Positions 26,301 through 44,612 of a DNA stretch of 64,000 nt are shown here, one piece after another; position 1 is the stretch's first letter; each line of letters opens with the position of its first letter. The notes under the pieces are model-generated. The model had not been told where the DNA came from, did no database searches, and saw nothing but the letters and a program-made list of their open reading frames with translations. The stretch is taken from contig NZ_MWPH01000006.1 of NCBI RefSeq assembly GCF_002177135.1, forward strand, positions 5,955 to 69,954. Direction: 5' to 3'. This stretch comes from Natronolimnobius baerhuensis (GTDB lineage: Archaea; Halobacteriota; Halobacteria; Halobacteriales; Natrialbaceae). A program made the translations under genes and the position numbers.

Positions 26301-26741
26301 AACATCCTCTTCAAATCGGTCGATGGATACTGGGACATTCCCAAAGTGGCCGACTGGGGGCTAGCGAATCATTTGCTCGACCGTCCGGATGCCGTCGAAG
26401 GACTGTCACCGCAGTACGCTGCTCCGGAACAGTTTGATCCCGATATCTTTGGCGACACCGATCTCGAGACGGATATCTATCAACTCGGAGTCGTCTTCTA
26501 CGAACTGTTTACCGGAACGCTGCCGTACGAGGGTGACCGGTACAAGGTGTTGCAGAACGAACCGGAGAGAACGCCAACGCCTCCGAGTGAACTCGCAGAC
26601 GTACCACCAGAACTCGACGACGTGCTTCTGAAAGCACTGGCCCCGGAGAAAGCGGACAGGTACGAGAACGTCGCCTTCCTCGAGCAGGAATTAGAAGTGC
26701 TCTTTGAATCGCTGGTCAACGACGCGAGTCCCCAGCGTTGA
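23310..26741 (+). CDS. membrane-anchored Hanks-type Ser/Thr protein kinase, paralog 3 (recent duplicate of paralog 1)
   Basis: Same architecture as paralog 1. The C-terminal ~800 aa are ~90% identical to 16347-19802. The kinase domain is near-identical. Confidence 0.85.
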   Translation: MGIDERDQHWFTADITHFVYSIFSPITVPFVLLAAMIWLLIVGIPGFMLEWIIKLIFTENGLVHSLYMIVFLFVIVVVFVGYFAFALIEYLTAEPMPDQMPTSTAGYCWWIGLPVLAAVAVLAGLAAGVEIESTRQFLVLVPLFVFGSVLLMTRTLSVVRRSKSSADVTVTVTTVVIAYILVAGVLEAVGLFVVAPFLFEPISEWPGMASVYVPLLLVLLVIIEPLDALGLLDSSSTDGSTDPGEMAANVPVLFDAETGEGLFMSLALTFVVLPALVAVVESSWHGYQITSEIRARKNRLKARKRKFEETSREFNSAIEDAEAALEDDRYDEVERLVIDVAQAKLDRCQRLHKNYDIPESVPASARIENLKIKLKRHEAKQELEDLIQRQEELIEEYRQNRDAANYEKAKGSLRRAKSVASDCTNTAREHGLKYSLPMSSNDIDAAIATLEATETEAELEDIVAEYESHLSTFDDAIWSGDLDRCDTLFETLRQKRSQIEQLEHKLGTNAEALSSADRDLADRIHHAAQQTIRTKFDVGVGTGECDGAFAWPEARARYLLASGRQAAENGEYRDAISRAETVATDLLQHLDDGSPSERNRDSLGDLIGTARDHKGEWERQLIVRQINDAVDREPDEYEEASKILTSALSRIDQTNAFSEEERAIIEQDTRKAYVTVRSDGASALVDNGNERLEVGDESSAATHYEDAMTTLGDLGDTVAEWNDVNNEPIDEQYNAVEQKYVETQTTLLEERIRLGIDQFDADEYDAALETFRNVTNETETVRERVETEYDRLLYLQDLTEANAKTTQRTSLGIGTGSKSLQEPEQDAAGTTHREHMDSSINSTSQAAGAPGNDIFDSIEASLPDEIDYMQLEKETVLGSGGNATVHKARLDSDETQYIALKEPQVPEGTVDKALFDRFRDEAENWKQVDDHPHIVSVLDHGMHTLPWIAMEYLDGGHLGDRVGQLETEHALWTALAVTRAIKHAHRPGITHLDIKPENILFKSVDGYWDIPKVADWGLANHLLDRPDAVEGLSPQYAAPEQFDPDIFGDTDLETDIYQLGVVFYELFTGTLPYEGDRYKVLQNEPERTPTPPSELADVPPELDDVLLKALAPEKADRYENVAFLEQELEVLFESLVNDASPQR

Positions 26742-26833: not shown

Positions 26834-28372
26834 CTACGGTTCAATCGTTCCGAACAAACCAACCGCTTTGCGTCGCCGATAGAGATATAATAGGAACGTC
26901 AATGCATAGGCGATAAGGCCGATGTAATAGAGGTAGCGCCGCGGCGACCACTCGATCCGCTCACTCTGTTGAAACAGTACCATCTCCTTGTTCCAAGCGT
27001 AGAAGAATCCGATGATAGAACCAAGTATGATCACTGCACCGCCGTCAGTGCCGCTTGCGCCGCCAAGGATGAAGGCCGGGAACGACCCGTATAGTATATG
27101 ATGCGTATGAAGCGTACCGAAATCGGTCTCGATTACTGCTGACGAAACGCGTTGTGCTGGCGTGGGTTCGGTTGGTGATTGTTGCGAGGGCGATTCGGAC
27201 GTAGAACGCGAGTTCGGTTGTTCAACACCGGTGTCAGCTCCCGTATTGGGACGGGTTGTATCACGCCTGTCTGTTTCTTTGTCATTATTCGAAACCGATG
27301 GATCACCAGGATTCGTTATCGTCGTTCCACTGTTCGTGCCGGCCTGATCGGTTGATGAAACTGTACCGCGCTGAGTTGAAGTGGACGCTGATGTCGAGTC
27401 GCTGGTGTTCTGTGAAGGTGTACTTCGAGGAGCTGCCATCGATTCGGCCGGGTCGTTGCCGAGTGCCAACTCGAGCAAACGGTTGAGTTCGCGTTTGAAG
27501 TCAAGAATTGACTCGTACCGATCAGATTTGTCCTTTGTGAGTGCGCGCATGAGCGCGCTGTCGGTTCCCTCGGGGAGACCATCAACTCGTTCACTGGGTG
27601 GTATCGGTTCCGACTCGAGGACGTCATGCATGACGGTCGCGGCAGATCCAGTAAACGGTGGTTCGCCGACGAGCGCGGCGTACACAACCGCACCAGTTGC
27701 ATAGATATCTGTGTAGTCGTCGGTATGCCCGTAGGTTTCGTCATCGAACTGTTCGGGGGCGGCATAGTGTGGCGACAGTCCTTCGATGCTCTGAGAGTGT
27801 TCAAGCAGCATCTTCGCAAGTCCCCAATCAGCGACTTTTGGAACATCCCACGAACCCGGCTCCGTCTCTGCGAACAAGACGTTTTCCGGTTTGAGATCGA
27901 GATGGGCAATACCTCGCCTGTGAGCGTGACGGACCGCACGAGCGATGCAGACGCCGATCCACAGCGCTTCTGCGGGCTCGAGATCGCCGAGTCGCGCATC
28001 GAGACTGCCGCCATCCATGTATTCCAGTGCAATCCATGGGAGCGGCTGACTCTCATAACCGAGCACGCTGACGATGTGATCGTGGTCGTCGAGTTTCTCC
28101 CACGTCTCCGCCTCTGCAGTGAACTGTGAAAGGGATTCGACGTCTAGTGTCCCCTGCATTCGTGGCTGTTTCAGCGCACAGATGTCAGGCCCCTCACCCT
28201 TGAATTGAACCTTGGTGACATCGGCGTTCCCCCCTGATCCAATCGCCTCGAGTTCTTCGAAATCTGTGAAGTCAGCGTCGATCCGGACAGGATCGGTATC
28301 AGCAACGTCCGGACGTAAATCCTTGTGTACCCCCGAAGACATATCTCTGTTCTCGAATACTGAGAGAACCAT
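26834..28372 (-). CDS. Hanks-type Ser/Thr protein kinase with inverted architecture (N-terminal kinase, S/T/P-rich linker, C-terminal TM helices)
   Basis: 'IGSGGNADVTKV', 'ALKQP', 'HRRGIAHLDLKPENVLF', 'DWGLAKMLL', 'SPHYAAPEQF'. Low-complexity STP/Q linker. Two or three C-terminal hydrophobic helices. Confidence 0.85.
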   Translation of the reverse strand: MVLSVFENRDMSSGVHKDLRPDVADTDPVRIDADFTDFEELEAIGSGGNADVTKVQFKGEGPDICALKQPRMQGTLDVESLSQFTAEAETWEKLDDHDHIVSVLGYESQPLPWIALEYMDGGSLDARLGDLEPAEALWIGVCIARAVRHAHRRGIAHLDLKPENVLFAETEPGSWDVPKVADWGLAKMLLEHSQSIEGLSPHYAAPEQFDDETYGHTDDYTDIYATGAVVYAALVGEPPFTGSAATVMHDVLESEPIPPSERVDGLPEGTDSALMRALTKDKSDRYESILDFKRELNRLLELALGNDPAESMAAPRSTPSQNTSDSTSASTSTQRGTVSSTDQAGTNSGTTITNPGDPSVSNNDKETDRRDTTRPNTGADTGVEQPNSRSTSESPSQQSPTEPTPAQRVSSAVIETDFGTLHTHHILYGSFPAFILGGASGTDGGAVIILGSIIGFFYAWNKEMVLFQQSERIEWSPRRYLYYIGLIAYALTFLLYLYRRRKAVGLFGTIEP

Positions 28373-28540: not shown

Positions 28541-29257
28541 TCAGAGTGAACTAAGGAGGACACTCACATTGTCACTTCCGCCGTTTTCGTTCGCTCGTTC
28601 AACGAGCAGGTCAGCGCCCTTTGCGAGTGTCGGCGCTTCGTGGATGAGTTCGTGGATTGTTTCGTCGGCGACTTCCTCGGTCAACCCATCCGAACAGAGC
28701 AATAGCGTGTCTGCTCCAGAAACTTCGTAAAAATCTGGCTCAACCGTCTCATCTGTTCCAAGTGCTTGTGAGATTACGTTTCGCTGTGGATGCTCCGCAG
28801 CTTCTTCCGACGTGAGTTTCCCTTGATCGACCAACTCTTGGACTAACGACTGATCAGTGGTTACCTGCTCGATTGAACTCTCGGTGAGGGTGTATGCCCG
28901 ACTGTCGCCAACGTTCGCGAGGAGTACCTCACCGCTCCGAACGAGTGCAACGACCACTGTTGTTCCCATTCGTGAACGCTCGTTACACTGGTCGTGGATC
29001 GCTCGATTGGCGTCCACAATTGCTGATTCCAACAGATCCTTCCACTCGGTCCGTGGTGGTATCGAATCGCCACCAAGCGTCTCTTCGAGCGTGTCGATTG
29101 CCAGTTGACTCGCGACGTCGCCAGCGGCGTGGCCGCCCATCCCGTCAGCGACCGCGAGGAGTTTCGTATTATCTGTCAGCTGCGTTCCAAACAGGGTATC
29201 CTCGTTGTGTTCGCGTTGACGGCCGACGTCAGTTCGGGTTACAAAAGTCTCGTTCAT
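28541..29257 (-). CDS. PP2C-family (PPM) Ser/Thr protein phosphatase
   Basis: 'GRQREHNEDTLF', 'LLAVADGMGGHAAGDVASQLAI', 'GDSRAY', 'LLLCSDGLT' and the C-terminal 'GGSDNVSVL' are canonical PPM motifs. Confidence 0.85.
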   Translation of the reverse strand: MNETFVTRTDVGRQREHNEDTLFGTQLTDNTKLLAVADGMGGHAAGDVASQLAIDTLEETLGGDSIPPRTEWKDLLESAIVDANRAIHDQCNERSRMGTTVVVALVRSGEVLLANVGDSRAYTLTESSIEQVTTDQSLVQELVDQGKLTSEEAAEHPQRNVISQALGTDETVEPDFYEVSGADTLLLCSDGLTEEVADETIHELIHEAPTLAKGADLLVERANENGGSDNVSVLLSSL

Positions 29258-29269: not shown

Positions 29270-30085
29270 TTAATTAGAGTTTGCTGGGTCACAGTGCGGA
29301 CAGGCATCCTCATAGGCCAGATCGTGAACCTGACAGAACTGTTTCGTGGCGGTTTCGGACGGTGCTGTATCGCCACCCGGTTCCGATGGCTGGTTCGAAC
29401 CGAGGTCGTACCCGCAGTTAGGACAGTACAATGCAGTGGCGCTGATCTCGCTCCCACATTTGATGCAAAACTGTGTATCGCTCGTGGTCTCTTCGGACCC
29501 CGGTTGCGGTTCGGGAGTAGACGTCTGATTGTTGACCGAGATCGTATCCGACGGGTTCGACTCGCTTCCGATGCTCGAGCGATTGAAGACATTATCGTCG
29601 CCGACCTCGGCCGGTTCTTCGCCACCGATGTCCGTACGGTTAAAGACGTTGTCGTCACCGACGGTAGTACTGTTATCCTCACCCACCACGATTTTCCCGT
29701 CCCCGGTGTTGACAAATTTCGCATCTCGCTCGGTCGTCAACTGTAACGTAGTCTGGTAGCCAATCGAGATCGTAGCGTCGCTCGAGACCGTCTCAATACG
29801 TCCGTTGGCGACCTCTCGCTCCATACCTTTCGAAGTGACGGTGATGCCGTTAGAGTTCCCGTTGTTGTGAATCTCGATCCGTTCCTCGCGTGGCTTGAAC
29901 GCGACTGGCGCGGTATCTCCCTTTTTACGAGAGACAGTAATGTCAGCGACACCCAATGGCACGACTTTACCGTCTACTTCGGCAACGACTTGTTCGCCTC
30001 GTTCAGGGTCGCGATACACCTCTGTCCATGATTCGACAGAAATTTTCCCCGTATCCGACGAATCGATTGTTACGTACCCCCTCAT
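29270..30085 (-). CDS. zinc-ribbon protein with degenerate FHA-like N-terminal domain
   Basis: C-terminal 'FCIKCGSEISATALYCPNCG' and 'FCQVHD...CPHCD' are CxxC pairs. The N-terminal beta-rich region ('ITVSRKKGD...IEIHNNGNSNGITVTS') loosely matches the FHA 'SR.HA...S.NGT.VNG' pattern. Internal repeat 'VGDDNVFNR(T/S)(D/S)IG' x2. Confidence 0.55.
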   Translation of the reverse strand: MRGYVTIDSSDTGKISVESWTEVYRDPERGEQVVAEVDGKVVPLGVADITVSRKKGDTAPVAFKPREERIEIHNNGNSNGITVTSKGMEREVANGRIETVSSDATISIGYQTTLQLTTERDAKFVNTGDGKIVVGEDNSTTVGDDNVFNRTDIGGEEPAEVGDDNVFNRSSIGSESNPSDTISVNNQTSTPEPQPGSEETTSDTQFCIKCGSEISATALYCPNCGYDLGSNQPSEPGGDTAPSETATKQFCQVHDLAYEDACPHCDPANSN

Positions 30086-30317: not shown

Positions 30318-31112
30318 TCACCCACTCCGTTCGTGCAGTCGCCGGATGCGCGTTGCAAGTTCACGCACGCGTTTCTGGCGATCCTCAGCAAGGGAGTTGT
30401 CCGCGGGTACAATTTCGAGTTGCTCGACGACCCCATCGACCTCCTCATAGAGTTCATCGTAGGCGGCATCAGAGACTGGATTAGCCGCCAGAAAGTCGCG
30501 CAGTTCTGTTGCTCGCTGGTGGCAGGCTTCCGGTGATTCTCCGGCAGCGGCCTCGAGATGCTCGGCTAGCGAGACTCCGAGGTAGCCAACGGCGTTTCCA
30601 ACGTCGTCGGTCTCCGTTTCATCAGTGCCCGAACCAGTACCTGCACTACCAGCACTATTTTCGATAGTAACATCCTGTAATCGCTGACGTGCACGTCGTC
30701 GCTCGTCTTCGTACGTGGCATTTCCAGCGATTTCAGCGAGCGTCTGGCCGATACGCTCTTGCTCGGTTGCCTTGATCTCAGGATACAATCCCCGAAGCGT
30801 ATCGATGGCGTCGAGTCGTTCGCTCGTATTAGTTCCGTCCTCGGCAAGCGTACAGAAGAGCGGAACAACGACCGACGCAGCAACGGTTGGATCCCGATCG
30901 AAAAGCGACTGCAGCGTCTTGCGTGCGAGTTCCCGCTCAGCGCGTCCCGTCGAGTCGGTCACTGTCGTTCGCAGCGTCTCGAGGATGCGGCGTCGCTCGC
31001 GCTCGTCAGCCGTCGGATACAGCGTCGCGAGCGATTCGATTGCCTCCTGTCGGTCCTGCGAATACGGTGATTCGAGGGCCGTCTCTCGGTGGGTATCGAT
31101 TGCTTCCTGCAT
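30318..31112 (-). CDS. HEAT/PBS-lyase-like repeat protein
   Basis: Repeating helix-pair units of ~30 aa ('AIESLATLYP', 'ILETLRTTVTD', 'AIDTLRGLYPE'). ATGA overlap with the upstream gene at 31112. Confidence 0.6.
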   Translation of the reverse strand: MQEAIDTHRETALESPYSQDRQEAIESLATLYPTADERERRRILETLRTTVTDSTGRAERELARKTLQSLFDRDPTVAASVVVPLFCTLAEDGTNTSERLDAIDTLRGLYPEIKATEQERIGQTLAEIAGNATYEDERRRARQRLQDVTIENSAGSAGTGSGTDETETDDVGNAVGYLGVSLAEHLEAAAGESPEACHQRATELRDFLAANPVSDAAYDELYEEVDGVVEQLEIVPADNSLAEDRQKRVRELATRIRRLHERSG

Positions 31113-32890
31113 CAGATGTTCTCCCCGCAGTTCGTACAGAAATCGTTCTCGGCCGGTACCGCCGTCTCACAGCTGGGACAGACGACATCCGTCTCGGAGG
31201 TGGTGCCGCTGCCGCTATTGCTACCACCGCCGTCACCACCCTGGACAATGGTGGTATCGCCGCCGCTGCTGCCACCTGCGTCCGGAATAATAACATTATC
31301 TGACGTGTCCTCTGCAGCCGCGCGGCCAGTCTCGCCCATGTTATCCATGGCCGACTCAGTCGTCTCCTGCATCCGATCCATCGAGTCGCCCATCATCTCT
31401 TTCATCTCCTCACGGAATTCCTTCTGGTCATCGACGCGCTGGCGTTCTTTCTCGGCACTGTTTGCCTCCTGGCGGGCCTTCGCGAGTTCGTCGCTATCTT
31501 GGGCACCCAGTGCTTCGAGTTGGGCGGGCGAGAGATTCCCGGCCTTTTCCATCTCAGCTAACTCCGCAACTGACTCATCAACGCCATCCATGCTCGCGAG
31601 CGTACCAAGGTCGACGTCGTCGCGGGCTTCCAGTTGCTCCTTCTCGACTTCGACCTCGTGGCGCTCCTTTTCCATCTCGAGGTCTTGCTCGCGTTGCTCG
31701 CGGTCGAGTTTCTGTTGGTCTTTCTTCGACTTGACGTCGATCAGATCTTCGATTTCGGTGATGTCCTGCTCGTGTTCAAGGTCGCGGCGGTCGACTTCGT
31801 TCTCCTTGCGCGTGGTCTTGGCGTGTTCTTCGTGTTCGACTTGCTCGCGCTCGGCTGTATGTCGGTGCCGGCGCTGCATGTCGTCTTTCTCGTGGTCGTA
31901 CTCGAGATCCTGGGTCTCAATCTGGTGGTCAGCGGATTGTTTCGTGGTTTCGCGCCGGACCCGCTGTTTCTCGTCGTGGACCGTATCGCTGGTGTCACGC
32001 TCGCGTTCGCGACGGTCGAGTTCCGCGCGGCGGTCCTCAAGGTCTTCCGTCTCGGCACGGATCTCAACGTCTTTCTTCCCCTCGCGAATCTCGTCTCGGT
32101 CATCCTCATACTCAAACGACCGTAGGTCGACCAGCGCCAGTCCGTTGCGCTCGAAAATCGCCTGACACTGCTGAGCGACATCCGATTGCAGCGTTGCCGT
32201 CAGTTCGCGATTTCCGTACAATTCCTCATGCTCGTATGAAGAAAGCGTCGCCGCCAACTCCCCCCGAACGGCGTCGCCGAGCAACCGCTCAAGCGTATCA
32301 GTTGTAACCGCATCCCGATCCGTGACCATGCTGGTGAAGAACTGCTCGGTATCCTCGAGAGTGAAGACGAGTTCGACGGTCACATCGACGGGATACTCCG
32401 ACGCCGTCCGGACGCCCTCAATCGGTAGGGTCAAGACCGTGTTTCCATCTGGAACTAACACGACGGATCGATCTTGGCCAGTGCGGAAATCGACGATCTT
32501 CTGCCCGAGTGAGTCAAGCGTGTGGTTCCCTGGCCCGATCTCTTCGGTCACCGAACCGTCCTCGAGCAGGAGTGCCCGCGTTCCCTCTTCGATGCTGATC
32601 TCCTCTTTCTGACGCAGTCGGTTTAGGAAACCGCCAGATTGTAGCGCCGCACCGTCTACTCGTCGAGCCAGTTCCGTTGGCCGCAACTGGATTGGACCTG
32701 ACTCAGAATCGTTTGTCGATTTGTTATCGGACCGTGCGTCGAGGGACTCACCACAGCTCGGACAGAACGACCCACTTGCCGAAACGCTGTCACCGCAACT
32801 CGGGCAACTCTCGCTGACCGAACAGCCACAGTCGCGGCAGAAATTTGCCGCATCGGGGAGTTCGGTCCCACAGTCGGGACAGATCGTCAT
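31112..32890 (-). CDS. flotillin-like protein: N-terminal Zn-ribbons, SPFH/band-7 domain, ~270-aa charged coiled coil, C-terminal Zn-ribbon
   Basis: 'CPDCG...CRDCG...CPSCG...CPSCG' N-terminal. 'VVLVPDGNTVLTLPIEGVRTASEYPVDVTVELVF...TDTLERLLGDAVRGELAATL...LALVDLRSFEYED' matches the SPFH core. E/R/D/K-rich heptads follow. C-terminal 'CPSCE...CTNCG'. Confidence 0.7.
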   Translation of the reverse strand: MTICPDCGTELPDAANFCRDCGCSVSESCPSCGDSVSASGSFCPSCGESLDARSDNKSTNDSESGPIQLRPTELARRVDGAALQSGGFLNRLRQKEEISIEEGTRALLLEDGSVTEEIGPGNHTLDSLGQKIVDFRTGQDRSVVLVPDGNTVLTLPIEGVRTASEYPVDVTVELVFTLEDTEQFFTSMVTDRDAVTTDTLERLLGDAVRGELAATLSSYEHEELYGNRELTATLQSDVAQQCQAIFERNGLALVDLRSFEYEDDRDEIREGKKDVEIRAETEDLEDRRAELDRRERERDTSDTVHDEKQRVRRETTKQSADHQIETQDLEYDHEKDDMQRRHRHTAEREQVEHEEHAKTTRKENEVDRRDLEHEQDITEIEDLIDVKSKKDQQKLDREQREQDLEMEKERHEVEVEKEQLEARDDVDLGTLASMDGVDESVAELAEMEKAGNLSPAQLEALGAQDSDELAKARQEANSAEKERQRVDDQKEFREEMKEMMGDSMDRMQETTESAMDNMGETGRAAAEDTSDNVIIPDAGGSSGGDTTIVQGGDGGGSNSGSGTTSETDVVCPSCETAVPAENDFCTNCGENI

Positions 32891-33104: not shown

Positions 33105-34307
33105 TTATTCATCCCAATCAGCGAGACTCGAGTCAACTGACTCGACTGCCGCTGTAAGGTGGTGCTGGGTTACTGGCTGGATCTCCGACTCATCGCGGGC
33201 CTCCTTGAGCGCGTCTCTAGCGGCCGTCGTCGCGACGAGCTCGAGGTCGCTCGCGGCGTAGCCCTCGGTTAGGCCTACGATTTCGTCCCAGTCAATCGTC
33301 TCAGTGAGGACCGGCCGATCACGGAGATGAACGCGCAAGATGGCTTCGCGTGCGGTCTCGTCCGGTGGCGGTACCTCAATTCGCTCGTCGAACCGGCCAG
33401 AGCGCTTGATAGCGTCATCGACAGCCTCCAGCAGATTCGTCGCCGCAAAAACAACGACGTCTTCGCCCTGGACATCTGAGAGTTCGGTCAGTAATTGATT
33501 GACCATCTGCTGTTGGCTTTGGGTCGTCTGTGCGCCGCCAGTTCGCTGACCAGCAATCGCATCGATTTCGTCGATGAAAACCAAACATGGCTGGTTCTCG
33601 CGGGCAACGGTGAACAACTCGGCGACGTTGTCTGCCGCTTCTCCGACTAAGGAACTTGACAGGTCTGACGGCGTCACCTCAATGAAATTGTAGCCGAGTT
33701 TACCAGCAAGTGCCTGTGTAATGTAGGTCTTGCCCGTCCCCGGCGGCCCGTACAACAACACGCCGTTGACGACGCCGAGTCCGTATTCCTCGTAGAGGTC
33801 GGGCCGCTCGAGTGGGTCGACAATGGTGTCGATTACGGTTTGTTTCAAGTCAGTCATCCCGCCGACATCATCAAAATCCAACTCAGGTGGATCCTTCAGA
33901 TATGCCTTCGCGTCGACCTCTTTGTTCTCATCGCCGTTGCCGGTCCCACCTGGTGGGCTGGCGTTTGCAGTTCCACCTGGTTCAGGTCCGCCCGATTGAG
34001 TTCCGGACCGGTCATCAGAGAACTCCGCGGTAGTCTCACTCTCCCCATCAACGACACTCACCTCACCCGATGCAATTGCCTCGAGTGTGTCGGCAGCCTC
34101 ATCGAGGTTCTTTGCAAGTGATCGCCGTTTCTCAGCGAGTTTCTCGGCCGACTCAAGGTCAGCGATCTGATCGACAATCTCGGCAGTTTTACGGTAGTGT
34201 TCGGCAGCCTTGGCGGGTTCTTTCCGTTCACGGAATTTCTCTGCGAGTTGGCGGTGGCGCTCGTAGTCGTCCTCAAGGATTTCTTTGTGTGCCCCGTCTT
34301 CTAACAT
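33105..34307 (-). CDS. Vps4/CdvC-like AAA+ ATPase (MIT-like N-terminal helical domain, disordered linker, single classical AAA domain)
   Basis: Walker A 'GPPGTGKT'. Walker B 'LVFIDEIDAI'. SRH 'ATNLLEAVDDAIKRSGRFDERIEVPPPD'. The N-terminal 85 aa form a three-helix pattern with an A/Y/E periodicity reminiscent of MIT. Confidence 0.8.
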   Translation of the reverse strand: MLEDGAHKEILEDDYERHRQLAEKFRERKEPAKAAEHYRKTAEIVDQIADLESAEKLAEKRRSLAKNLDEAADTLEAIASGEVSVVDGESETTAEFSDDRSGTQSGGPEPGGTANASPPGGTGNGDENKEVDAKAYLKDPPELDFDDVGGMTDLKQTVIDTIVDPLERPDLYEEYGLGVVNGVLLYGPPGTGKTYITQALAGKLGYNFIEVTPSDLSSSLVGEAADNVAELFTVARENQPCLVFIDEIDAIAGQRTGGAQTTQSQQQMVNQLLTELSDVQGEDVVVFAATNLLEAVDDAIKRSGRFDERIEVPPPDETAREAILRVHLRDRPVLTETIDWDEIVGLTEGYAASDLELVATTAARDALKEARDESEIQPVTQHHLTAAVESVDSSLADWDE

Positions 34308-34402: not shown

Positions 34403-35083
34403 TTAGATGTCGAACTCCTGTTCGTCGATTTCGACTTCCTCGAGGTCGAGGTCATCCTCGATTGCAGCGTCATCGCTGGTGTCAGCGGAGACTTCGGCTT
34501 CCATCTCGATGTCGACTTGCTCTTCTGAGATTTCGGAGGCAGCCATCTCTTGCATCAACTGCTCTTCTTCGCTGACGTCCATTGCGATGTCGTCTTCCAT
34601 GATGGGGATATCCAGTGCCTCCTGAATCTCTTCCATGTCCTCCATCTCGATGCCGAACGCAGCCATCCGCTCCATGATCTCGCTTTGGATCTCTTGAGCA
34701 TCAGCGTCATCCATCGCATTATCGAGCGCGATGTCGTCCTCGTTTTGTACTTCCATGATCTCGCGCATTCCCTGAATAGAAAGGATAGTACCGAGTTTGA
34801 CGCTGTTTGCGCGATACTTCTTTTTCTTGATCGCATACTTTTTCTTCTCAAATTTGGCTTTCTGTGCGTACTTTTTACGCTTGAGATCACTCACCTCCGC
34901 ACCTTCTTTGAGGAGTTTCTTGTATGTCCGACTATGTTGATCCATCTCATTCTCGAGTTTTTTCAGCTTGTGCTCGAGTTTCGTGATGTCTTTTCGGATG
35001 TCGGTATGACTGTAGACATCCTCGTCGAGGAGCGTCTGTCCTGTGCCGCCGAATCGGTCTTGAACCCAATTTCGAAGTTCCAT
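34403..35083 (-). CDS. Snf7/ESCRT-III-like (or PspA/Vipp1 superfamily) coiled-coil protein
   Basis: Basic N-terminal helical hairpin ('LKRKKYAQKAKFEKKKYAIKKKKY' resembles CHMP4 'LKRKKRYEKQLAQ'). Strongly acidic C-terminal half ('DIALDNAMDDADAQEIQSEIMERM' resembles CHMP4 'DIDKVDELMQDIADQQELAEEIS'). Adjacent to the Vps4-like ATPase. Confidence 0.55.
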   Translation of the reverse strand: MELRNWVQDRFGGTGQTLLDEDVYSHTDIRKDITKLEHKLKKLENEMDQHSRTYKKLLKEGAEVSDLKRKKYAQKAKFEKKKYAIKKKKYRANSVKLGTILSIQGMREIMEVQNEDDIALDNAMDDADAQEIQSEIMERMAAFGIEMEDMEEIQEALDIPIMEDDIAMDVSEEEQLMQEMAASEISEEQVDIEMEAEVSADTSDDAAIEDDLDLEEVEIDEQEFDI

Positions 35084-35414
35084 GAATATCGTCTTATGTC
35101 GTCGCGAATATTATCATTCGCATACCTGTTTAGTGGTCGCCACGTCCTTCTCTCTCGCCGGTTGCGTGGTCCGGTGCACACCGAATCGATCTACCCGGCC
35201 GTTGACCCAGTTGGCCACCATCAGTCCATATTCGCTGCAACGGGAAGACCTACCACTCAGAATGAAACGCCGGTATCGACGTCTTACAGCCTCGAATCGG
35301 GCACGTTCCTCGATTTGAGCAGTAGACAATCTGGTGGACATTCTCGTTTGACGACCCGTATTGACACATGTCCCTCCCTCCGACTTAAACCTTTGTACAT
35401 TTCGTAATATCTGC

Positions 35415-35537
35415 TGAGTCTCCATAATGGAGTGTGTATGAGACTCAACAAAATCCCCTTATGTGTTGTAACACGCGCTATTGGGACGGTATTGAGTTAC
35501 AACCCTCTAGTGACAGGATGAGTCTCCAATATGGAAA
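35415..35537. promoter_or_regulatory. two copies of palindromic motif GAGTCTCCA(TA/AT)ATGGA in divergent intergenic region
   Basis: 35415-35432 'tgagtctccataatggag' (with flanking inverted 'gagactca' at 35440-35447) and 35518-35537 'gatgagtctccaatatggaa'. The core TCCAnnnnTGGA dyad is a candidate operator. Confidence 0.4.
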
Positions 35538-35704
35538 AAAATATGGTGCTACAAGATGGTAGTAGGTGTAGAGGATGAGCGCAACAACGAATCGACGACC
35601 AGATGACCCTCCCTCCGTTCCGTCAACAAACCGATTCGGGACGCGTCGTTCGCGGGCACAACCGCGTGAGAAGACCCGCCAAGACCGTTCAGTCACTACG
35701 ACCG

Positions 35705-36267: not shown

Positions 36268-38268
36268 ATGAACTGTGCACGACGATTTCAGGATCTTGTT
36301 CGGGACCGAGACGTTGTTCTCGAGGAAGATCTGGCAGCGCTGAAACGCCAAAGTGAACGAGGACGTATCGAGCGGTACAATACGATCAAATCCGATGAGG
36401 CGACGTTCCAGTCGGCATTTACTGGCGACTGCCGAGAGTTTCTGACGCAGTCCGAGCGCAACCGCGCCCGCGGAGAATTCCGCCTTGCACGGTTGCTCAT
36501 TGCAGCCAGTTTCTACGACGATGATGAGAACCAATTCCCGCCGTCGATGGCCGACGACTTCGCGAACGCTGCCCTCGAGGCAGTCGTGGACTTTGAACGG
36601 TTCAAGCGCTTCGACGCGCTCTCGACGAACCAGATCGAAGAGCACATCCGGCGGATGGACGGCGAAGTGTACGAACTTGTTGTCGAGTACACATCGACGC
36701 AGCTAGCGACTGTCGAAGAGTTGCTCGAAGAGCCCGATGTCCAGCAGGACCTGATCGAGCGACTGCTTACACGCTACGAAGAGCGTCGCGAGAAAATTCG
36801 GCAAGGCTTTTTCACCTACGTCGAGACTCACGGTCTCGAGCACATGGTCGCCGAAATCGAGGCGGCCGTCGAGGCCGTCGCCAACGCCTCTGACACACGA
36901 GAAACGATCCACGAGCAACGCCAGGATGGCCCAGGGGACACATCATTGCGTCTCGACGGCAACCTGCGGCGTCGCACGCGAAAACTGGAGTCAGAATTGG
37001 GAGCTGCCGAAGCCGGTCTCGACGGTCAAAGCGACATCGACCACCTCCGTAAGCAGGTTGCTAACCTCACCGACACGCAGCAAACGGCGGTGACAGAACT
37101 CGAGGACCGCATCGACAAGGCGAGTGACCTCAAAGATCGCATCGACGCAGAGATTGAACGCCTCCAACAGACGCACGGTGATGTCGCCGACGCTAATCGC
37201 AAGGAGGTCGCCGACGCGACAGCCGACCTCATCGAGACCGAACTCGAGAATCTCGAAGCCGAGCGTGATGATCTTCTGACGGAGATTGATCACCTCAAGC
37301 GCGAGCGTGAGTTGCTTGAAGCGACTCGTAGTCGTCTGGACGAACGCCAAGGAACACTTACAGAGCCAATCGATAGTGATGTCGAAGCCGCGCTTGGACC
37401 CAACGTGGAGACCGGACTGGACGGCGACGATGTTGTTACCGCATCGGTTGCGTGTCTGCAGGAACTGGACTACCTCGGTCGCTTCGATATCTCGATGCGG
37501 GATGCCACGAGCATCACAACTGACGCGTCCGGCACCGAGTTTGAGGTTCCTGATAATTACTGGGACGACCGGAGCGAGCGGCGCAACGAACGGACACGAC
37601 TGGCAGATCTGCTCGAGGATGGCGACCCAACCGCCGTCGAGCAGTACCCCGTCAACCGGAGCGCGCGCTACGAGATCACCAACTCTCAGTACTTCGGTTT
37701 CGCCCGCGAAACAGAGATGATACTCGAAGCGCGAGTCTGTGCACATCTCATGGCGTACGCGACCACCGGGTTCGACGCGGCGCCGGCAGATCTCGACGAT
37801 GTGCTGTCCGTCCTCAACGACGTGATTTACGAAGCAGAGCAGCGGGACATCACGTATCTGCTCGGAATTGCATCCCCGACTGGCTGGACTGAGCGCGTTA
37901 TTGAACAACTGCAGGGAGAGGGGCAAAACGTGACCCGAACCCGAATGAGTCAAAACGTCGGTCTCTGTCTCGTCGATCTCCAAGACGGCTCCGTACTGTA
38001 CGACAAATCAGATTCCGTTGTCGCGGAGAACGCTCACCTCTTCGAACCACCACTTGAGAGCGAGCGTGTCACAAACTGTGTCTCAACCCTCCGCACCGAG
38101 TACGTTGACGATCTCGGCTGTGAGACAGTACTGCTGTGTGACATCGTTGAACACCACGACTATGACCCACACATTGTCGACCGAGCGTTTGACAAGCTAG
38201 AGCGTGATGGAACCGGCCACCAATTCTACGTCGAGGAGCTCGGATTGGCGTTAGCCGTCGGAACCTAG
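36268..38268 (+). CDS. hypothetical large acidic coiled-coil protein with globular C-terminal domain
   Basis: 666 aa. Central ~250-aa E/R/D-rich heptad region ('LEAERDDLLTEIDHLKRERELLEATRSRLDERQ'). No enzymatic motifs recognised. Confidence 0.55.
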   Translation: MNCARRFQDLVRDRDVVLEEDLAALKRQSERGRIERYNTIKSDEATFQSAFTGDCREFLTQSERNRARGEFRLARLLIAASFYDDDENQFPPSMADDFANAALEAVVDFERFKRFDALSTNQIEEHIRRMDGEVYELVVEYTSTQLATVEELLEEPDVQQDLIERLLTRYEERREKIRQGFFTYVETHGLEHMVAEIEAAVEAVANASDTRETIHEQRQDGPGDTSLRLDGNLRRRTRKLESELGAAEAGLDGQSDIDHLRKQVANLTDTQQTAVTELEDRIDKASDLKDRIDAEIERLQQTHGDVADANRKEVADATADLIETELENLEAERDDLLTEIDHLKRERELLEATRSRLDERQGTLTEPIDSDVEAALGPNVETGLDGDDVVTASVACLQELDYLGRFDISMRDATSITTDASGTEFEVPDNYWDDRSERRNERTRLADLLEDGDPTAVEQYPVNRSARYEITNSQYFGFARETEMILEARVCAHLMAYATTGFDAAPADLDDVLSVLNDVIYEAEQRDITYLLGIASPTGWTERVIEQLQGEGQNVTRTRMSQNVGLCLVDLQDGSVLYDKSDSVVAENAHLFEPPLESERVTNCVSTLRTEYVDDLGCETVLLCDIVEHHDYDPHIVDRAFDKLERDGTGHQFYVEELGLALAVGT

Positions 38269-38573
38269 CAGTAGTTCTGAATTTGAGCGCTATATTTCAG
38301 TCGCATAGACTAACTCGTCAGCGGAGACCACGAAATACACTCGGGAGATCAGCACCGAGCAAAAGATGCGGACGGTCACCGAAGCTGCTGCTGAGTATAT
38401 GGAACTCGCGATACCGCACATCGACTTTGGTCGTGATCCGGACGCACCCAACTACCAATATCCTCCAGAGTCGTTTTACCGCCTCTTAGCTCACGAAACG
38501 AGGTAGTTCAGTTGGAAGCAGCCACACCGTCAAGGAACGGTTGTATACATGAAGGTGGAACCACCTTCTGATT

Positions 38574-39635
38574 TTATGGCCCTTCCTCCCAGACAAAACT
38601 CATCATTTCTACGTCCGCTTTGTCAAAAAATTCTGTTTGCAATTTTTCAGCATTTTCAGCCAACCTTTCCATTTCCTCCCCTTCCTCTAAGAACCGATAT
38701 GAAACATGGTCTACTAACCAATTATATAGTTCATCTATCGCATTATCATAGTCTACGATTGCTTCACTAATGATAACGTTATTCTCCCAACTATCTACGT
38801 ATCCTTTTGCTCTTGTTGACCATTCATTGCTCGATAGCACATACTCTTTATCTAATGCAAAAGAGTACCGTTCCTCCTCAGACATATGTATAGTGAAATC
38901 TATCGGCTCATGGTGAACAATGTAATTTCGAAGACTAGTGAAAAACGGTTCATACAAATCAAGGTTACATTTTTTCACTTTTACATCATACAACTCGCTT
39001 ATCAGCGGATCCGATGAACAGTACTCATCTAACTCAGAAACTATCCTCTCAGTGTAGTTTTCTGCATTTTTCATAGATCCAATATAATTGGACAATAGGC
39101 GCATGAACTCTTTTGAGGATTCATTGACTTGCTTCCAATATATTTCCTCAGTTGTCTCACATCTGGCAATCAAGTGAATGAGTTCAGTATAGTTTCTGTG
39201 ACAAATATGGTTTATCGCATTCATCAATGTCAGGATGCAATTTCCAATATAATAGCCAGGAGAACTCTCCCATTCTCGTGTTGCTTCCATTGCTGCGTGA
39301 AATACTTCTTTTTCCTCTTCAGAATCAATACTGTCAGAATATGTTTTTAGTAGACCAAGTGACTCTGGAGGCATGATAGTCACTGTTAACATCTCAATTA
39401 CAAAATATCTTTCAGCCCTCTCTGCCTTTTCCCCTACCACCCCTTGGGGCCACACGTCGGCAAAACACGTTTCTCGAATATGCACACGAACTCCTGTTTT
39501 CTGTGTGCAGATCCAGATACTGCCTCTCGAGTCAATCTGAGGGCCTTCCATTGGGGACTTCAGATAAAATAGACCTCGAGAGAACAATGCAAACCACGAG
39601 AAGAGCCAGTCTGTGATCACAACCCCGCCAAACAA
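38574..39635 (-). CDS. hypothetical protein (AT-rich island; W/Y/C-rich, no TM)
   Basis: 353-aa ORF in a ~38% GC segment. Compositionally foreign. Confidence 0.45.
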   Translation of the reverse strand: MFGGVVITDWLFSWFALFSRGLFYLKSPMEGPQIDSRGSIWICTQKTGVRVHIRETCFADVWPQGVVGEKAERAERYFVIEMLTVTIMPPESLGLLKTYSDSIDSEEEKEVFHAAMEATREWESSPGYYIGNCILTLMNAINHICHRNYTELIHLIARCETTEEIYWKQVNESSKEFMRLLSNYIGSMKNAENYTERIVSELDEYCSSDPLISELYDVKVKKCNLDLYEPFFTSLRNYIVHHEPIDFTIHMSEEERYSFALDKEYVLSSNEWSTRAKGYVDSWENNVIISEAIVDYDNAIDELYNWLVDHVSYRFLEEGEEMERLAENAEKLQTEFFDKADVEMMSFVWEEGP

Positions 39636-39674
39636 GTCTGCTACACCAACTCTATTTACTTAACCAACAAAATT

Positions 39675-40034
39675 ATGCTCTCGAGAATTGTGTTGGTTAA
39701 CAGGGAGACCATGTCCGACGAACCACCGGAACCGCCAGCAGAACTCCCAAACGATTTGGTCGACACAATTGCTGACTACTCAACCGATCAACTTCGTCAC
39801 ATAGCTCGCTACGGCGAAGCACTTGCTGAATACAAGGAACGTGAGGAACGGCTTGCTGAGAAATCAGATGACGATGACATCGAAAAATCCGCTGCCGATC
39901 TACCAGACGACGTCCCGGCGAAAGCGACACCGACGATCAAGGAAATCAACGACAATCGGTACTACTACTGGCAGTGGAGAGATGGGGACCAGATTAAGTC
40001 CAAATACAAAGGGCCAGTCAATCCTGACGAGTAG
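39675..40034 (+). CDS. hypothetical acidic protein (a partial copy of it lies at 42060-42170)
   Basis: 119 aa. 'LRHIARYGEALAEYKEREERLAEK' is duplicated in degraded form inside the ORB cluster. Confidence 0.45.
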   Translation: MLSRIVLVNRETMSDEPPEPPAELPNDLVDTIADYSTDQLRHIARYGEALAEYKEREERLAEKSDDDDIEKSAADLPDDVPAKATPTIKEINDNRYYYWQWRDGDQIKSKYKGPVNPDE

Positions 40035-40351
40035 ACTGGCGGGGAAGCGACCATGGGTTGACACCCCAGTGCGTCCAGTGTCTTTACCCACACTCCGTGT
40101 GCAAAGTGAATTGATTCAGGACTCGAGAAGCGTGATACCAGAGATCAATACAACACGGTCCGACAACAGAGTGGAATGCGGCGATCAGTGTTTAGGCCGC
40201 GGGGCAGTTTCGTACCGAGAGATATCATCACGCTTCTCAATCCGGTCGTAGGTTTCCTGAAGTGTCTCTTTGGCACGGAGGAGTTTGTGCTCCTCAAGGA
40301 ATTGCCGACCACTCTCACTAAAGGCCAATGGAACATTCCTATTAGAGTGGG

Positions 40352-40945
40352 TTATGTATCGGTGTGCAATTCCATCAAAATAGATAGACTTGTGACGTCT
40401 TCGTCCTGTTGTCCATATCTCATTAAACTCTCCATCTGGTATTCTCCAGTAGGAAAGCACCCATCAGCAGATGGGTCGTCAGCGATAATATATTCATTAG
40501 AAATTGTTTCGCCTGGTTCAAGATCCGGTGTTTGAACTCCTTCTAGTGTCCAGTTAATATCTTCATTAGATGCACATTCTGGAGCAGAGTCAACAGATAG
40601 ACTATCTGCAGCAGCAAGAGAATAAATAATTATGCCAGCTGAACCATGATTGGAACTTGGCATTTTATAAAATGGTATTCGTGCCCCCACTACGGATTGA
40701 GAGTCGTTTGTTATACTTATCTCGAAAGTCGCACTATGTTGGGAATTTATCTCATTTTCTAATGTGACAACATCAAGTGTATAGGGAGAATCATTATCGT
40801 CCTGCTCGAGTTCGTGAATTGATAATTTCCGCTCAAAGTCATCGGTCATTTGATTACCTAATCCTAAGCAGCCTGCTGTTGAAGTGAAAGCTATTAAACC
40901 ACTTGTGGCAAGTATATTTCTTCTATTCATTAAGATAATTGTCAT
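40352..40945 (-). CDS. hypothetical secreted protein / lipoprotein (Tat-like signal plus lipobox-like AGC)
   Basis: 'MNRRNILATSGLIAFTSTAGCLG' N-terminus. AT-rich. Confidence 0.5.
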   Translation of the reverse strand: MTIILMNRRNILATSGLIAFTSTAGCLGLGNQMTDDFERKLSIHELEQDDNDSPYTLDVVTLENEINSQHSATFEISITNDSQSVVGARIPFYKMPSSNHGSAGIIIYSLAAADSLSVDSAPECASNEDINWTLEGVQTPDLEPGETISNEYIIADDPSADGCFPTGEYQMESLMRYGQQDEDVTSLSILMELHTDT

Positions 40946-41732
40946 ACCTGATTGAATATATACTTTTGGTACCCCCGTTACACTGGATTTAATCAGGAGA
41001 ATTGCAGAGTACTTCTGTCACCTCATCGAGCACGACCTCGTCGAGATCGCTACCCCTGACACTGTTAACTCCGATATCGACCGATTCAGAGATGTGATGG
41101 TTGCTAATGGAACCGTCCTACGGTTGCACGCCCAACTCATACTCCACGAACTCAGCGAATATCTCGGCTACTCGCCGCCACCGCTCCTCTACCGACTGAC
41201 CGAAGATGCACAGAAGATCCACCAGCAACAGCCAGTGTTACAAGAGACGCTCGCTACCGCTACGCAACCGAGGTGTGAGTCTTAGCTAAAGAGGAATAAT
41301 GCAAATCTCAGGTCACTCGAGTTAAAATCTCAAAGATGCTGCAGACACCTCTATCGATTTGTTTTTCGCGAGTACGTTGCTAGCGCCATCAATCCTTGGC
41401 ACCCCAGTACGTCCAGTGTTGATCAACCAGGATACCAAACACCCCCCGCCATGTCCAGTGTCTCGAGAAACAATTTCACTACACCCCACCATGTCCAATG
41501 TCTTTGTCTTTCCAAGGCTGCTGCAGACACCCCTATCGATTTGTTCGAAACAGGGCAAACCATCACGCATACACTCCACCCGTCGAGTGTAAACCGGCGA
41601 ATATTCAGAGTACAGACCGTCTCTGTGACGGTCAAAAAAGAGGTTTGCTTGAATCCGGTGAGCTGACAATCTAAGAAGAGCAGATGATAGAAAGTTAGTA
41701 CAGAGGATCTCGCGGAAGACGTGGCCATCTCG

Positions 41733-41750
41733 AGATGATGATGATGATGA
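41733..41750. repeat. (GAT)6 microsatellite
   Basis: 'gatgatgatgatgatgat' read directly. Confidence 0.9.
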
Positions 41751-42059
41751 TGGTTCCCACGGTTATATAAATACCTCTGTAACCGACACTCAATGCACCT
41801 ACTGGAGAAATCCCTCGTTCAAAGTCCTATACAATCCCTGCTGTAAGGCAGCTATCTACGCACAATTTCGGGAATTTACACTCGACAGGTGGGGTGTTCC
41901 TTGAACTCAGTGTACATGTTAGTCGATACACTCGACGCTTGGGGTCCCAGATGCCTGAGTTTGGAATTCTGTTTTTATTTTAATTCTATTTGGTTAATAG
42001 GGAGTCTATAGTCGGTGTATTTGAGGTCTTACACTCGACAACCGGGGTGATATGAGTGA

Positions 42060-42170
42060 CTCTATGCGCATCCTATGTCAGATTTCTTTGAAGACCTACT
42101 TCGACACGCAACTCGCTACGGCGAAACGCTTGCTGAGTACAAAGAGTGTTAGGAGCGCCTCGCGAACGAT
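42060..42170 (+). pseudogene. degraded partial copy of gene 39675-40034
   Basis: 'LRHATRYGETLAEYKEC*ERLAN' versus 'LRHIARYGEALAEYKEREERLAE'. About 80% nucleotide identity over ~85 bp. Confidence 0.35.
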
Positions 42171-42435
42171 ACCTAGTTTAATCTATATAATTATATTAAC
42201 TTCTGTTCTTCTACCACCTTGAGGATGTTGCGGACACCTCTATCGATTTGTTTTTCGCAAGTACGTTGCTAGTGTCGTCAATGATTTAGCACCCACCACG
42301 GACAGTGTCTTTGTTTCCCTAATGACGCCAGATTCTGTTGTTTTACCCCTCAAAGAGACTGGAGACACCTCTATCGATTTGTTCTACACAGTCCAGACCA
42401 CTACGCACACACCCCTATCGATTTGTTTTTCGCAA

Positions 42436-43770
42436 TTACTGAGATTGCTTACGGAGTTGAGCTTGAACCACCGCTTGGAGTTCGTCATCATGCACATCAT
42501 CAAACCGAGAGTCTTCACGAAGCGTATCCATGATTGTTTCTGGACTTTCAGCAAACGAAAACTCGAGATAGCTCCCTGAGTGTGGACCTTGGCTTTTGCG
42601 TTCGGATTCCACGAGAGAGTACGTCGTCAACTCCTTCATCTTGTTGACATAGGTCTCTTGATGATACTGATCTACATTGAGCGTGTCTGTGAGATATCGA
42701 TAGACAGTGTAGCCATTCGGGCTTTTTGCAGTCCCGTTGCCAGCTTGTTGAGCTACCGCCGCTGTTGCCAGTAAACAGAGTTTTTTCTGAGTACTGATTC
42801 CACGCGTGACCTCCAGTACGCGGTTCTTCTCGACTTTATCTTGGGCTTTTCGTACGTGAGTTTCACTTACCTGATCTGCAGCCTCACGTTCAGCAATGGA
42901 CCCTGCTGTCCGCATCAAGTCGATTGCCTTTCGAGCATCACCGTGAGTTTGGGCAGCGAATGCAGCTGCAAGTGGGATCACATCTTCACTGAGTGCATCC
43001 TCATAGAACGCATCCGTCCGATGGTAGAGAATTTCCCGAAGCTGGTTCGCGTCATAATCATTGAAATGGACATCCTCAGGAGTAAACGAACTCACTGCAC
43101 GGCTCCCGACATTGGACATCATTGTGGCATCGTTTGTAATCGCTGTCACTGAAACGTTTGCCCTCGTATCGTCAGTACTTCCAGCCCGAGAGAGTTGGTA
43201 CAACAATCGCGAAAACGCAGGTTCATCGATATCCCGACGGCCAACCAGCATATCGAGTTCATCGAGAATAACAACTACAGTGTCGTAGTGTTCATCAATC
43301 AACCGATACAGCTCACGCCATTTCTTTTTTGTTGGGATACCGTGCTCAGGCACTTCGACCGTAACGCCAGCATCAGTAGCAACCTTCCGCGCGAGTTCAT
43401 AAACTGCAGAACCAAGCGTACCGACATTTTGGCAGTTCATGTGGATAACGCCAAAGCGAATGTCTCGAGTCTCGCATAGCTCAAGGATGTTTTTACAGAC
43501 TGCGTTGATGATCAACGATTTTCCTGTACCTGATGGACCATAGAGGAAGAGATTAGGTGGTCGTTCACCGTTGATAGCAACGCGAAGATGCTGAGTGATC
43601 TCTGTAAGCTGTGAATCTCGCCCAACAATGCGGCCTTCATCAACAATCTCGTTAGGCTCCAAGAGAGGCCGGTTCCGGATAAGACTCGCAGATTCCTCCT
43701 GATCGAGAATAAGATCCTTAATAGAACCCGTCTCACCAGGCGGGGTCCCTGAATCTGGATCTTTTGACAT
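42436..43770 (-). CDS. orc1: Orc1/Cdc6 replication initiator (AAA+ plus winged helix)
   Basis: Walker A 'GPSGTGKS', Walker B 'VVVILDELDML', sensor 'HGDARKAIDLMRTAG', C-terminal WH domain. Flanked on both sides by ORB-like repeats. Confidence 0.9.
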   Translation of the reverse strand: MSKDPDSGTPPGETGSIKDLILDQEESASLIRNRPLLEPNEIVDEGRIVGRDSQLTEITQHLRVAINGERPPNLFLYGPSGTGKSLIINAVCKNILELCETRDIRFGVIHMNCQNVGTLGSAVYELARKVATDAGVTVEVPEHGIPTKKKWRELYRLIDEHYDTVVVILDELDMLVGRRDIDEPAFSRLLYQLSRAGSTDDTRANVSVTAITNDATMMSNVGSRAVSSFTPEDVHFNDYDANQLREILYHRTDAFYEDALSEDVIPLAAAFAAQTHGDARKAIDLMRTAGSIAEREAADQVSETHVRKAQDKVEKNRVLEVTRGISTQKKLCLLATAAVAQQAGNGTAKSPNGYTVYRYLTDTLNVDQYHQETYVNKMKELTTYSLVESERKSQGPHSGSYLEFSFAESPETIMDTLREDSRFDDVHDDELQAVVQAQLRKQSQ

Positions 43771-43908
43771 ACAAAGGCCCTCACAGTCAATTGACTAAAA
43801 GGTTCCCCTATCGATATGTATTTTCTCAGTAGAGGTGTTAGGAAGGGGGTTTGTGGGTTTTTCAGTTATAGGTTCGGAAACCTACAACGACTTGTTACAG
43901 GACAGTCT

Positions 43909-44270: not shown

Positions 44271-44541
44271 ACTACACATCAAAATACTCATCAATCCATT
44301 GGTTGTGCTGTTCCTCTGCACCGACTAATTCGATTACCCATCTCGAAATCGATCAGATTTCACTTGGAAAAATAACGGACTGACTTGATGCGCGGCAGCA
44401 GACTCGAGGCACTAGGTGCCATCTTATTAATCCGGAGATCCGTGGAAAAATCGGTGGAGAATATAAACAGCATGAACTAGAATATCTGGTTGAGAGTGTA
44501 GGAGCACAGTTATCAGTGCATTCGGGAAATTGACATGACCT

Positions 44542-44612
44542 CACTACTTCCGCTGTTAGCCATGAATAACTGTAGCACTCATTGCATCCTTAGTGTAACA
44601 GCGGAAGTAGTG
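44542..44612. repeat. 17-bp perfect inverted repeat (cactacttccgctgtta / taacagcggaagtagtg) separated by 37 nt
   Basis: Read directly. Could form a long hairpin in RNA or a cruciform in DNA. Confidence 0.8.

Follow-up and report, generated by a model that had tools for sequence, protein, structure and literature searches.

The window analysed here is a 64,000-nucleotide stretch of the haloarchaeon Natronolimnobius baerhuensis (RefSeq assembly GCF_002177135.1, contig NZ_MWPH01000006.1, positions 5,955–69,954 of the forward strand). All coordinates below are those of the window, with the strand in brackets, unless a related locus is named. At 34403–35083 (−) the window carries an ATG-initiated open reading frame for a 226-residue protein, and directly downstream of it, at 33105–34307 (−), the gene for a 400-residue Vps4-like AAA ATPase. 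We read the 226-residue protein as the Snf7-type ESCRT-III subunit of a Halo_FHA-type ESCRT system of euryarchaea, and give this reading a probability of about 0.8. The reading frame had been proposed in a first-pass annotation made from the sequence alone, and is confirmed; all three peptide strings quoted there are present in the translation. An exact-sequence look-up identifies the product as WP_087715648.1 (OVE82830.1) of N. baerhuensis. In NCBI and UniProt this entry is still labelled as a hypothetical or uncharacterized protein, so a reader with only the sequence to hand would think it new.

The protein and its locus have in fact been described. ESCRT systems of archaea were surveyed computationally by Makarova et al. 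(2024, mBio 15:e00335-24; PMC10936438), who recognized several euryarchaeal Vps4 clades. One of these, Halo_FHA of the Halobacteriales, has as its hallmark an FHA protein with a CdvA-like C-terminus (arCOG13166); arCOG09748, arCOG08177, Ser/Thr kinases and phosphatases are frequent further members of its loci (PMC10936438). Table S1 of the survey lists WP_087715648.1 under arCOG07402, ‘ESCRT-III/Snf7 family’, and this curators' listing places the 226-residue protein in arCOG07402. The same table gives WP_087715647.1 as Vps4 (arCOG01307), WP_087715646.1 as arCOG15283, WP_087715645.1 as FHA-CdvA-like (arCOG13166), WP_054862121.1 as arCOG09748 and WP_087715649 under arCOG08177, together with the N. 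baerhuensis SPS1 kinases WP_087715642/643/644 (PMC10936438). The ATPase was placed in the Vps4 tree, and Fig. S5 presents the N. baerhuensis neighbourhood as the Halo_FHA representative locus (PMC10936438). The locus in the window encodes the same protein, and its composition agrees with the published one (Vps4, ESCRT-III, FHA-CdvA-like, SPFH, arCOG08177, arCOG09748, kinases and phosphatase). The assignment is correct, not new, and the novelty implied by the first-pass annotation does not stand, since the 2024 paper already presents this very protein and locus as the representative Halo_FHA system. Beyond that computational paper, the literature searched yielded no experimental study of haloarchaeal ESCRT-III/Vps4 or of arCOG07402. 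What we add is a controlled measure of the weak sequence and fold evidence, a case for Snf7 over PspA, the invariance of the gene pair and a conserved non-aromatic pore loop in the ATPase.

A search of ∼5.8 billion protein clusters recovered 149 clusters of relatives at E ≤ 0.01; the best 120 of the 149 share 53–100% identity with the query over nearly its full length and carry no precomputed Pfam domain. The relatives are all haloarchaeal or from hypersaline metagenomes, the genera and groups including Natronolimnobius, Halosimplex, Haloarculaceae, Salarchaeum, Halonotius and J07HX64. When 1.84 billion representatives were searched exhaustively with HMMER, no more than 87 proteins reached E ≤ 0.001, which points to a small family with sharp limits. 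Among 24 diverse members that were aligned, 38 columns are invariant and the start, MELRNW, is conserved; the invariant positions include W6, AQKAKF.KKKY (residues 73–83), K96.GT..S..G.R (96–107) and Q154.ALD (154–158). The reading frame is a genuine, conserved gene. Six-frame translations of the window, scanned with family hidden Markov models (HMMs), contain no second paralog. Halonotius aquaticus has two ESCRT-III/ATPase pairs on different contigs (related loci L008 and L013), with 59% and 53% identity to the query. Halomicrobium mukohataei (L014) has two tandem arCOG07402 paralogs, of which the one beside its ATPase gene is 22% identical to the query (E 3e-8) and the other shows no relation to the query detectable by BLASTP.

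The pairing with the ATPase gene is strict. All three contigs retrieved by an exact-protein look-up carry the ATPase gene downstream of the ESCRT-III gene on the same strand. A scan of contigs for the family gave at least 10 loci, and the same arrangement is present in 10 of the 10 species-representative genome loci listed, with gaps of ∼7–100 bp. Two genomic sites occur both among these 10 loci and among the three contigs; the loci come from other genera. The gene pair is invariant across genera, and in the window as in the related loci the ESCRT-III gene is directly linked to one for a Vps4-type AAA ATPase. Directly upstream of the ESCRT-III gene, Halonotius and Halosimplex have a gene for a 92–94-residue predicted membrane protein with hydrophobic segments (6618–6896 in L001, 7666–7950 in L003). 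The window has no counterpart of this gene; in its place is a divergent intergenic region of ∼520 bp (35084–35602).

The predicted architecture of the 226-residue protein resembles that of ESCRT-III. AlphaFold2 was run twice, with a 24-sequence alignment and then with a 59-sequence alignment reaching ∼20% identity. The first model has a hairpin of helices 26–62 and 66–114, with a predicted local distance difference test score (pLDDT) above 90; beyond the hairpin come shorter helices and a disordered tail. The second model is better (mean pLDDT 79, predicted template modelling score 0.67) and places helices at residues 3–11, 15–19, 26–62, 66–115, 127–142, 147–157 and 173–181. Long α1–α2 helices in a hairpin, followed by shorter helices, are a hallmark of the ESCRT-III fold, and the predicted fold has both. 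The first-pass annotation had set the absence of this hairpin in advance as grounds for abandoning the assignment; it is present with a pLDDT above 90.

The segments of this fold differ in conservation and charge. Helix 3–11 (35051–35077, −) is amphipathic and α0-like, is predicted in both models (pLDDT ∼85 in the second) and is aligned by hhalign to the N-terminus of CHMP4B. W6 is invariant in this region and F11/G12 are at least 90% conserved, and a role as membrane anchor may be inferred for the helix, which matches the α0-type N-terminal element expected of ESCRT-III. Helix α1 of the hairpin spans residues 26–62 (34898–35008, −), with a pLDDT above 90 and a confident hhalign alignment to CHMP4B 27–62. 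Helix α2/3 (residues 66–115; 34739–34888, −) is lysine-rich, with a net charge of +12, and holds the invariant AQKAKF.KKKY and K.GT..S..G.R motifs. Two shorter acidic helices follow within residues 127–157 (34613–34705, −), α4-like at 127–142 and α5-like at 147–157, as judged by the AlphaFold2 model and by conservation; Q133, A141, F143, Q154, A156, L157 and D158 are invariant there, and hhalign aligns these helices with α4/α5 of CHMP4B at low confidence. The C-terminal part, residues 173–226 (34406–34567, −), consists of a conserved acidic helix (173–181), with E172/E173 invariant, and a disordered hyper-acidic tail. Neither a canonical MIT-interacting motif (MIM) of type 1, (D/E)xxLxxRLxxL(K/R), nor a proline-rich MIM2 is present in the 226-residue sequence; helix 173–181 is a candidate MIT-interacting element.

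The first-pass annotation had also drawn attention to a bipartite charge organization, and this proves to be strong. Residues 1–114 hold 28 Lys/Arg against 17 Asp/Glu (net +11, isoelectric point 9.8), with helix 66–114 by itself at net +12, whereas the 112 residues from 115 to 226 hold a single Lys/Arg against 46 Asp/Glu (net −45). The isoelectric point is 4.3–4.6 for all neighbouring proteins, and the charge split of the 226-residue protein is extreme for a haloarchaeal protein. The protein thus has the basic N-terminal core and acidic C-terminal region of ESCRT-III; that the latter autoinhibits the former would follow by analogy.

Homology to ESCRT-III was assessed by profile–profile comparison with hhalign. 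The references were six CHMP/Snf7 sequences and two PspA/Vipp1 sequences (Escherichia coli PspA and Synechocystis Vipp1), all validated by Pfam, where they score 60–198 bits on PF03357 and 166–242 bits on PF04012, respectively. Against the six-sequence Snf7 set, family profiles gave a probability of 56–63% (P 1e-4 to 9e-6), and the query subfamily alone gave 70–73% (P 4e-5 to 4e-6), with columns 11–178 aligned to 5–163, that is, over the whole core. These probabilities of 56–73% are above background and under the usual confidence level of 90–95%, and they were obtained with a small reference profile. The real score was 36.3; reversal of the Snf7 profile gave 13.4, and none of 20 column shuffles exceeded 18.0. 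Since the score lies above both kinds of null, a Snf7-type relationship above background is indicated. On this profile evidence we judge the relationship to Snf7-type ESCRT-III to be probably real, within the twilight zone and very divergent.

The collinearity with CHMP4 that had earlier been drawn by hand is reproduced by the hhalign global alignment, with posterior confidence that is low outside helix α1. The confident part of the alignment places helix α1 and the following loop in exact register with CHMP4B 27–62. Further along, LKRKK is aligned at the start of α2, DIALDNAMDDADAQEIQSEI with DIDKVDELMQDIADQQELAEEI, and EMEDMEEIQEAL with EEFDEDELMAEL.

The partner ATPase (WP_087715647.1, arCOG01307 ‘Vps4’) consists of a conserved helical, MIT-like N-domain (residues 1–80), a variable linker of low complexity and one AAA domain (PF00004, 2e-38) with intact Walker A and B motifs and arginine fingers (GPPGTGKT, LVFIDEID and RSGRFDER). 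The single AAA domain, the MIT-like N-domain and the strict adjacency agree with the earlier description of the neighbour as a Vps4-like ATPase. Pfam detects no MIT domain in the protein. A profile of four N-domain sequences matches crenarchaeal CdvC/Vps4 MIT entries at corresponding N-terminal positions (2v6y, E 0.0095; 2w2u, 0.043; 4lcb, 0.13), and TPR repeats score as well as or better than these entries against the same profile. The N-domain is accordingly called MIT-like here. By sequence, the best PDB matches of the ATPase are VAT and p97.

The pore of the ATPase has an unusual feature. Pore loop 1 (residues 218–224) reads SSLVGEA and lacks an aromatic residue, departing from the aromatic–hydrophobic K-W/Y/F-x-G pattern. 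The loop is invariant, being found in the window and in 11 of 11 further subfamily loci in which the region is present, while the Halo_FHA ATPase of H. mukohataei (L014) has a canonical SKYFGE pore loop. The SSLVGE loop resembles the p97 D1 type. Substrate engagement might therefore differ from that of Vps4. The ATPase also matches the IetA/IteA models; a reading as a defence system was rejected, since these matches reflect generic AAA similarity and the other proteins of the locus have no PADLOC matches.

A number of results weigh against an ESCRT-III identity. The 226-residue protein has no Snf7 or PspA match in single-sequence scans of Pfam, NCBIfam, PADLOC and PHROGs; PF03357 did not match it at E ≤ 1, its gathering threshold being 27.3 bits, and neither PF03357 nor PF04012 matched any of 59 family members at E ≤ 0.01 in a Pfam scan. 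When PDB sequences were searched by hmmsearch with a narrow and a broad family profile, no ESCRT-III chain came up at E ≤ 10, the matches being by chance or to coiled coils. Foldseek found nothing in the PDB at E ≤ 0.001, with a best E-value of 0.27. As for the ATPase, it scores 154.8 bits on the CdvC model NF041006, under the 650-bit equivalog cut-off, and scores higher on the PAN (216.7), FtsH (203.6) and CDC48 (194.9) models. The first-pass annotation had taken the absence of any profile match above background as sufficient to discard its proposal. That outcome was escaped narrowly: the profile–profile signal lies above background, and the methods that compare an HMM with sequences find nothing.

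These results give some room to the view that the 226-residue protein is a hairpin or coiled-coil protein that resembles ESCRT-III by composition and shape, that is by analogy, and acts for example as an adaptor, regulator or substrate of the AAA ATPase without forming a membrane-remodelling polymer. Profile-versus-sequence searches return generic coiled-coil proteins (YlqD, STAT_alpha, DAD3 and kinesin), and in fold searches 14-3-3, Smac, STAT, IpaB and many other hairpins rank as high as ESCRT-III; ∼17 of the top 50 Foldseek matches are CdvB, CdvB2, Vipp1 or Asgard ESCRT-IIIB chains. In addition, the AAA domain of the neighbour is not closest to CdvC by score. Against resemblance by analogy stands the specificity of the hhalign signal for Snf7, which exceeds the nulls and extends collinearly along the entire core. 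PspA gives no such signal, although its helical and charged composition is similar. ESCRT-III is likewise matched by the order of α0, hairpin, short helices and acidic tail, by the division into basic and acidic halves and by the fixed place upstream of the gene for a MIT-like AAA ATPase, and arCOG08177 and arCOG09748 are common to other archaeal Vps4/ESCRT-III loci. Resemblance by analogy is therefore unlikely, in our view.

The 226-residue protein could alternatively be a member of the PspA/Vipp1 clade, protecting the membrane under stress independently of ATPase-driven turnover. The first-pass annotation had allowed for such an assignment, which is very unlikely on the present evidence. Against the PspA profile, hhalign gave P 0.07–0.4, the same as for the reversed and shuffled controls; with a reference of only two sequences, this test is weaker than that against the small Snf7 profile. 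PF04012 matches 0 of the 59 family members, and the helix lengths and the hyper-acidic tail fit the Snf7 type better. Constant association with a MIT-like AAA ATPase is what is seen in Snf7/Vps4 systems, and PspA and Vipp1 are not known to be paired normally with a MIT-domain AAA ATPase. Profile comparison therefore supports the Snf7 clade, not the PspA clade, for this protein.

It is extremely unlikely that the protein binds nucleic acid or is chaperone-like, with a lysine-rich helix that contacts DNA or RNA and an acidic tail that masks it, as might be suggested by the extreme Lys/Arg density of helix 66–114, including the invariant AQKAKFEKKKY, and by a profile similarity, very weak, to ribosomal protein bS21 (E 1.6): this similarity is no better than chance, the context offers AAA ATPase, SPFH and kinase genes, to which the gene is tied, and no nucleic-acid machinery, and the Snf7 profile signal would be left unexplained.

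We conclude that ESCRT-III-superfamily homology and the general mode of action that goes with it are probable for the 226-residue protein. The Snf7/CHMP-like identity proposed at the outset is upheld by hhalign scores above the nulls, the predicted hairpin, the charge asymmetry, the neighbouring AAA ATPase and the published arCOG assignment.

The genes around the pair extend the comparison with Halo_FHA loci. The SPFH/Band-7 protein WP_087715646.1 (arCOG15283; 31112–32890, −) has N- and C-terminal zinc ribbons and a charged coiled coil. Its stop is overlapped by the start of the gene for a 264-residue helical-repeat protein, WP_054862127.1 (30318–31112, −), which UniRef names ‘HEAT repeat domain-containing protein’ and which we did not find in the tables of Makarova et al. 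(2024). The FHA-CdvA-like protein WP_087715645.1 (arCOG13166; 29270–30085, −) has 271 residues in RefSeq and 249 in GenBank, owing to different starts; Pfam gives neither an FHA nor a CdvA domain in it at E ≤ 1, a C-terminal zinc ribbon being the sole detection. A gene for a PP2C-type Ser/Thr phosphatase (28541–29257, −) and four genes for Ser/Thr protein kinases are also present, the latter at 16335–19802 (+), 19941–22979 (−), 23310–26741 (+) and 26834–28372 (−). The first three of these kinases are 1012–1155 residues long, with N-terminal regions of 750–880 residues that have almost no Pfam annotation; one of the three holds a bacterial PH domain. Presumably the N-terminal regions serve as sensor or membrane domains with output to the FHA/PP2C branch.

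Across the ∼520-bp intergenic region, which separates the ESCRT-III/Vps4 gene string from the arCOG08177/arCOG09748 pair, the genes point the other way. The arCOG08177 protein WP_087715649.1 (35603–36253, +) has inactivated Cas2-like and TBD/DUF3568 domains, and its N-terminus matches the row for WP_087715649 in the Fig. S3 alignment of the 2024 survey; its true start is probably the Met at 35705. A gene of this family lies divergently upstream of the ESCRT-III gene in 5 of the 10 related loci listed. It is followed in the window by the gene for the 666-residue arCOG09748 protein WP_054862121.1 (36268–38268, +), likewise divergent from the ESCRT-III gene.

The locus adjoins a low-GC stretch at 38000–46000 (0.45–0.48, as compared with 0.55–0.62 nearby), within which lies an Orc1/Cdc6 gene (42436–43770, −); beyond it are genes for a ParA-like ATPase (51709–52629, −) and an IS240-type DDE transposase (57122–57775, +). 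Together these features give the region the look of a secondary replicon or integrated element. In H. mukohataei (L014), the related system is on the 222-kb plasmid pHmuk01. The 226-residue protein has no tblastn match among PLSDB plasmids, so that plasmid carriage is not general. Two large proteins encoded nearby, one with GIFT/ABC_transp_aux-like repeats and a staphylococcal-nuclease domain (45061–48102, +) and one with carboxypeptidase-regulatory-like Ig repeats (48069–50801, +), seem unrelated to the ESCRT locus. At 6311–7351 (−) and 7513–11553 (−), a GH10 xylanase-family gene stands beside the gene for a 1346-residue surface protein with GLUG motifs and Big_1/invasin-type Ig domains, a cargo that looks unusual for a haloarchaeon.

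The comparison with known systems shows both likeness and divergence. With Snf7/CHMP4 and the other CHMP proteins (PF03357), the 226-residue protein shares an amphipathic N-terminal segment, a basic α1–α2 hairpin of similar length, an acidic α4/α5 region and C-terminal tail, pairing with a MIT-domain AAA ATPase (here MIT-like) and collinear hhalign similarity (P 1e-4 to 4e-6). It differs in falling under every Pfam threshold, in having no MIM1 or MIM2, in a gap of ∼12 residues in α2 relative to CHMP4B as aligned by hhalign, and in a far more acidic tail, with its 46 Asp/Glu against one Lys/Arg in 112 residues. With crenarchaeal CdvB/CdvB1/CdvB2 and CdvC it has in common the archaeal pairing of genes for ESCRT-III and a Vps4-type ATPase and the marginal sequence similarity of the ATPase N-domain to MIT domains, and a CdvA-like segment has been reported in the neighbouring FHA protein (PMC10936438). 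In contrast to CdvB, however, the haloarchaeal protein has no C-terminal winged-helix domain; its ATPase reaches 155 bits against the 650-bit CdvC cut-off; and the locus is linked with Ser/Thr phospho-signalling and with SPFH. From PspA/Vipp1 (IM30, PF04012) it differs in giving no sequence-profile signal above the null.

By analogy with these systems, the acidic C-terminal half of the soluble protein would fold back on the basic hairpin and hold it in an autoinhibited state. On activation, the hairpin and the N-terminal helix would bind anionic membrane, and the protein would polymerize into curved filaments that deform or cut it. The ATPase would be recruited through its MIT-like domain to the C-terminal region, for which helix 173–181 is the best candidate site, and would disassemble or remodel the polymer at the expense of ATP. 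Recruitment is presumably placed under phosphorylation control by the kinases, the phosphatase and the FHA protein, and the SPFH protein may serve as a mark or scaffold for the site on the membrane. The authors of the 2024 survey likewise propose ESCRT-III/Vps4-like working by analogy (PMC10936438). The haloarchaeal host divides with FtsZ (PMC10936438); hence vesicle formation, protein sorting or membrane repair is a likelier role than cytokinesis, as the 2024 paper also argues (PMC10936438).

A different kind of working can be envisaged because the SSLVGE loop is non-aromatic, there is no recognizable MIM and the poly-acidic tail is extreme. The pair would then remodel the polymer without threading, and the phospho-regulated module would be a stress- or infection-triggered membrane response on secondary replicons, not a housekeeping machine for vesicles or sorting; the Orc1/Cdc6, ParA and insertion sequence genes near the locus and the H. 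mukohataei plasmid prompt the secondary-replicon part of this suggestion. We consider it improbable, and favour a Halo_FHA-type ESCRT-III/Vps4 system that remodels membranes in the general manner of ESCRT-III. The presence of ESCRT-III/Vps4 in euryarchaea that divide with FtsZ bears on how and when ESCRT remodelling arose before eukaryotes, and on the function of ESCRT outside cell division.

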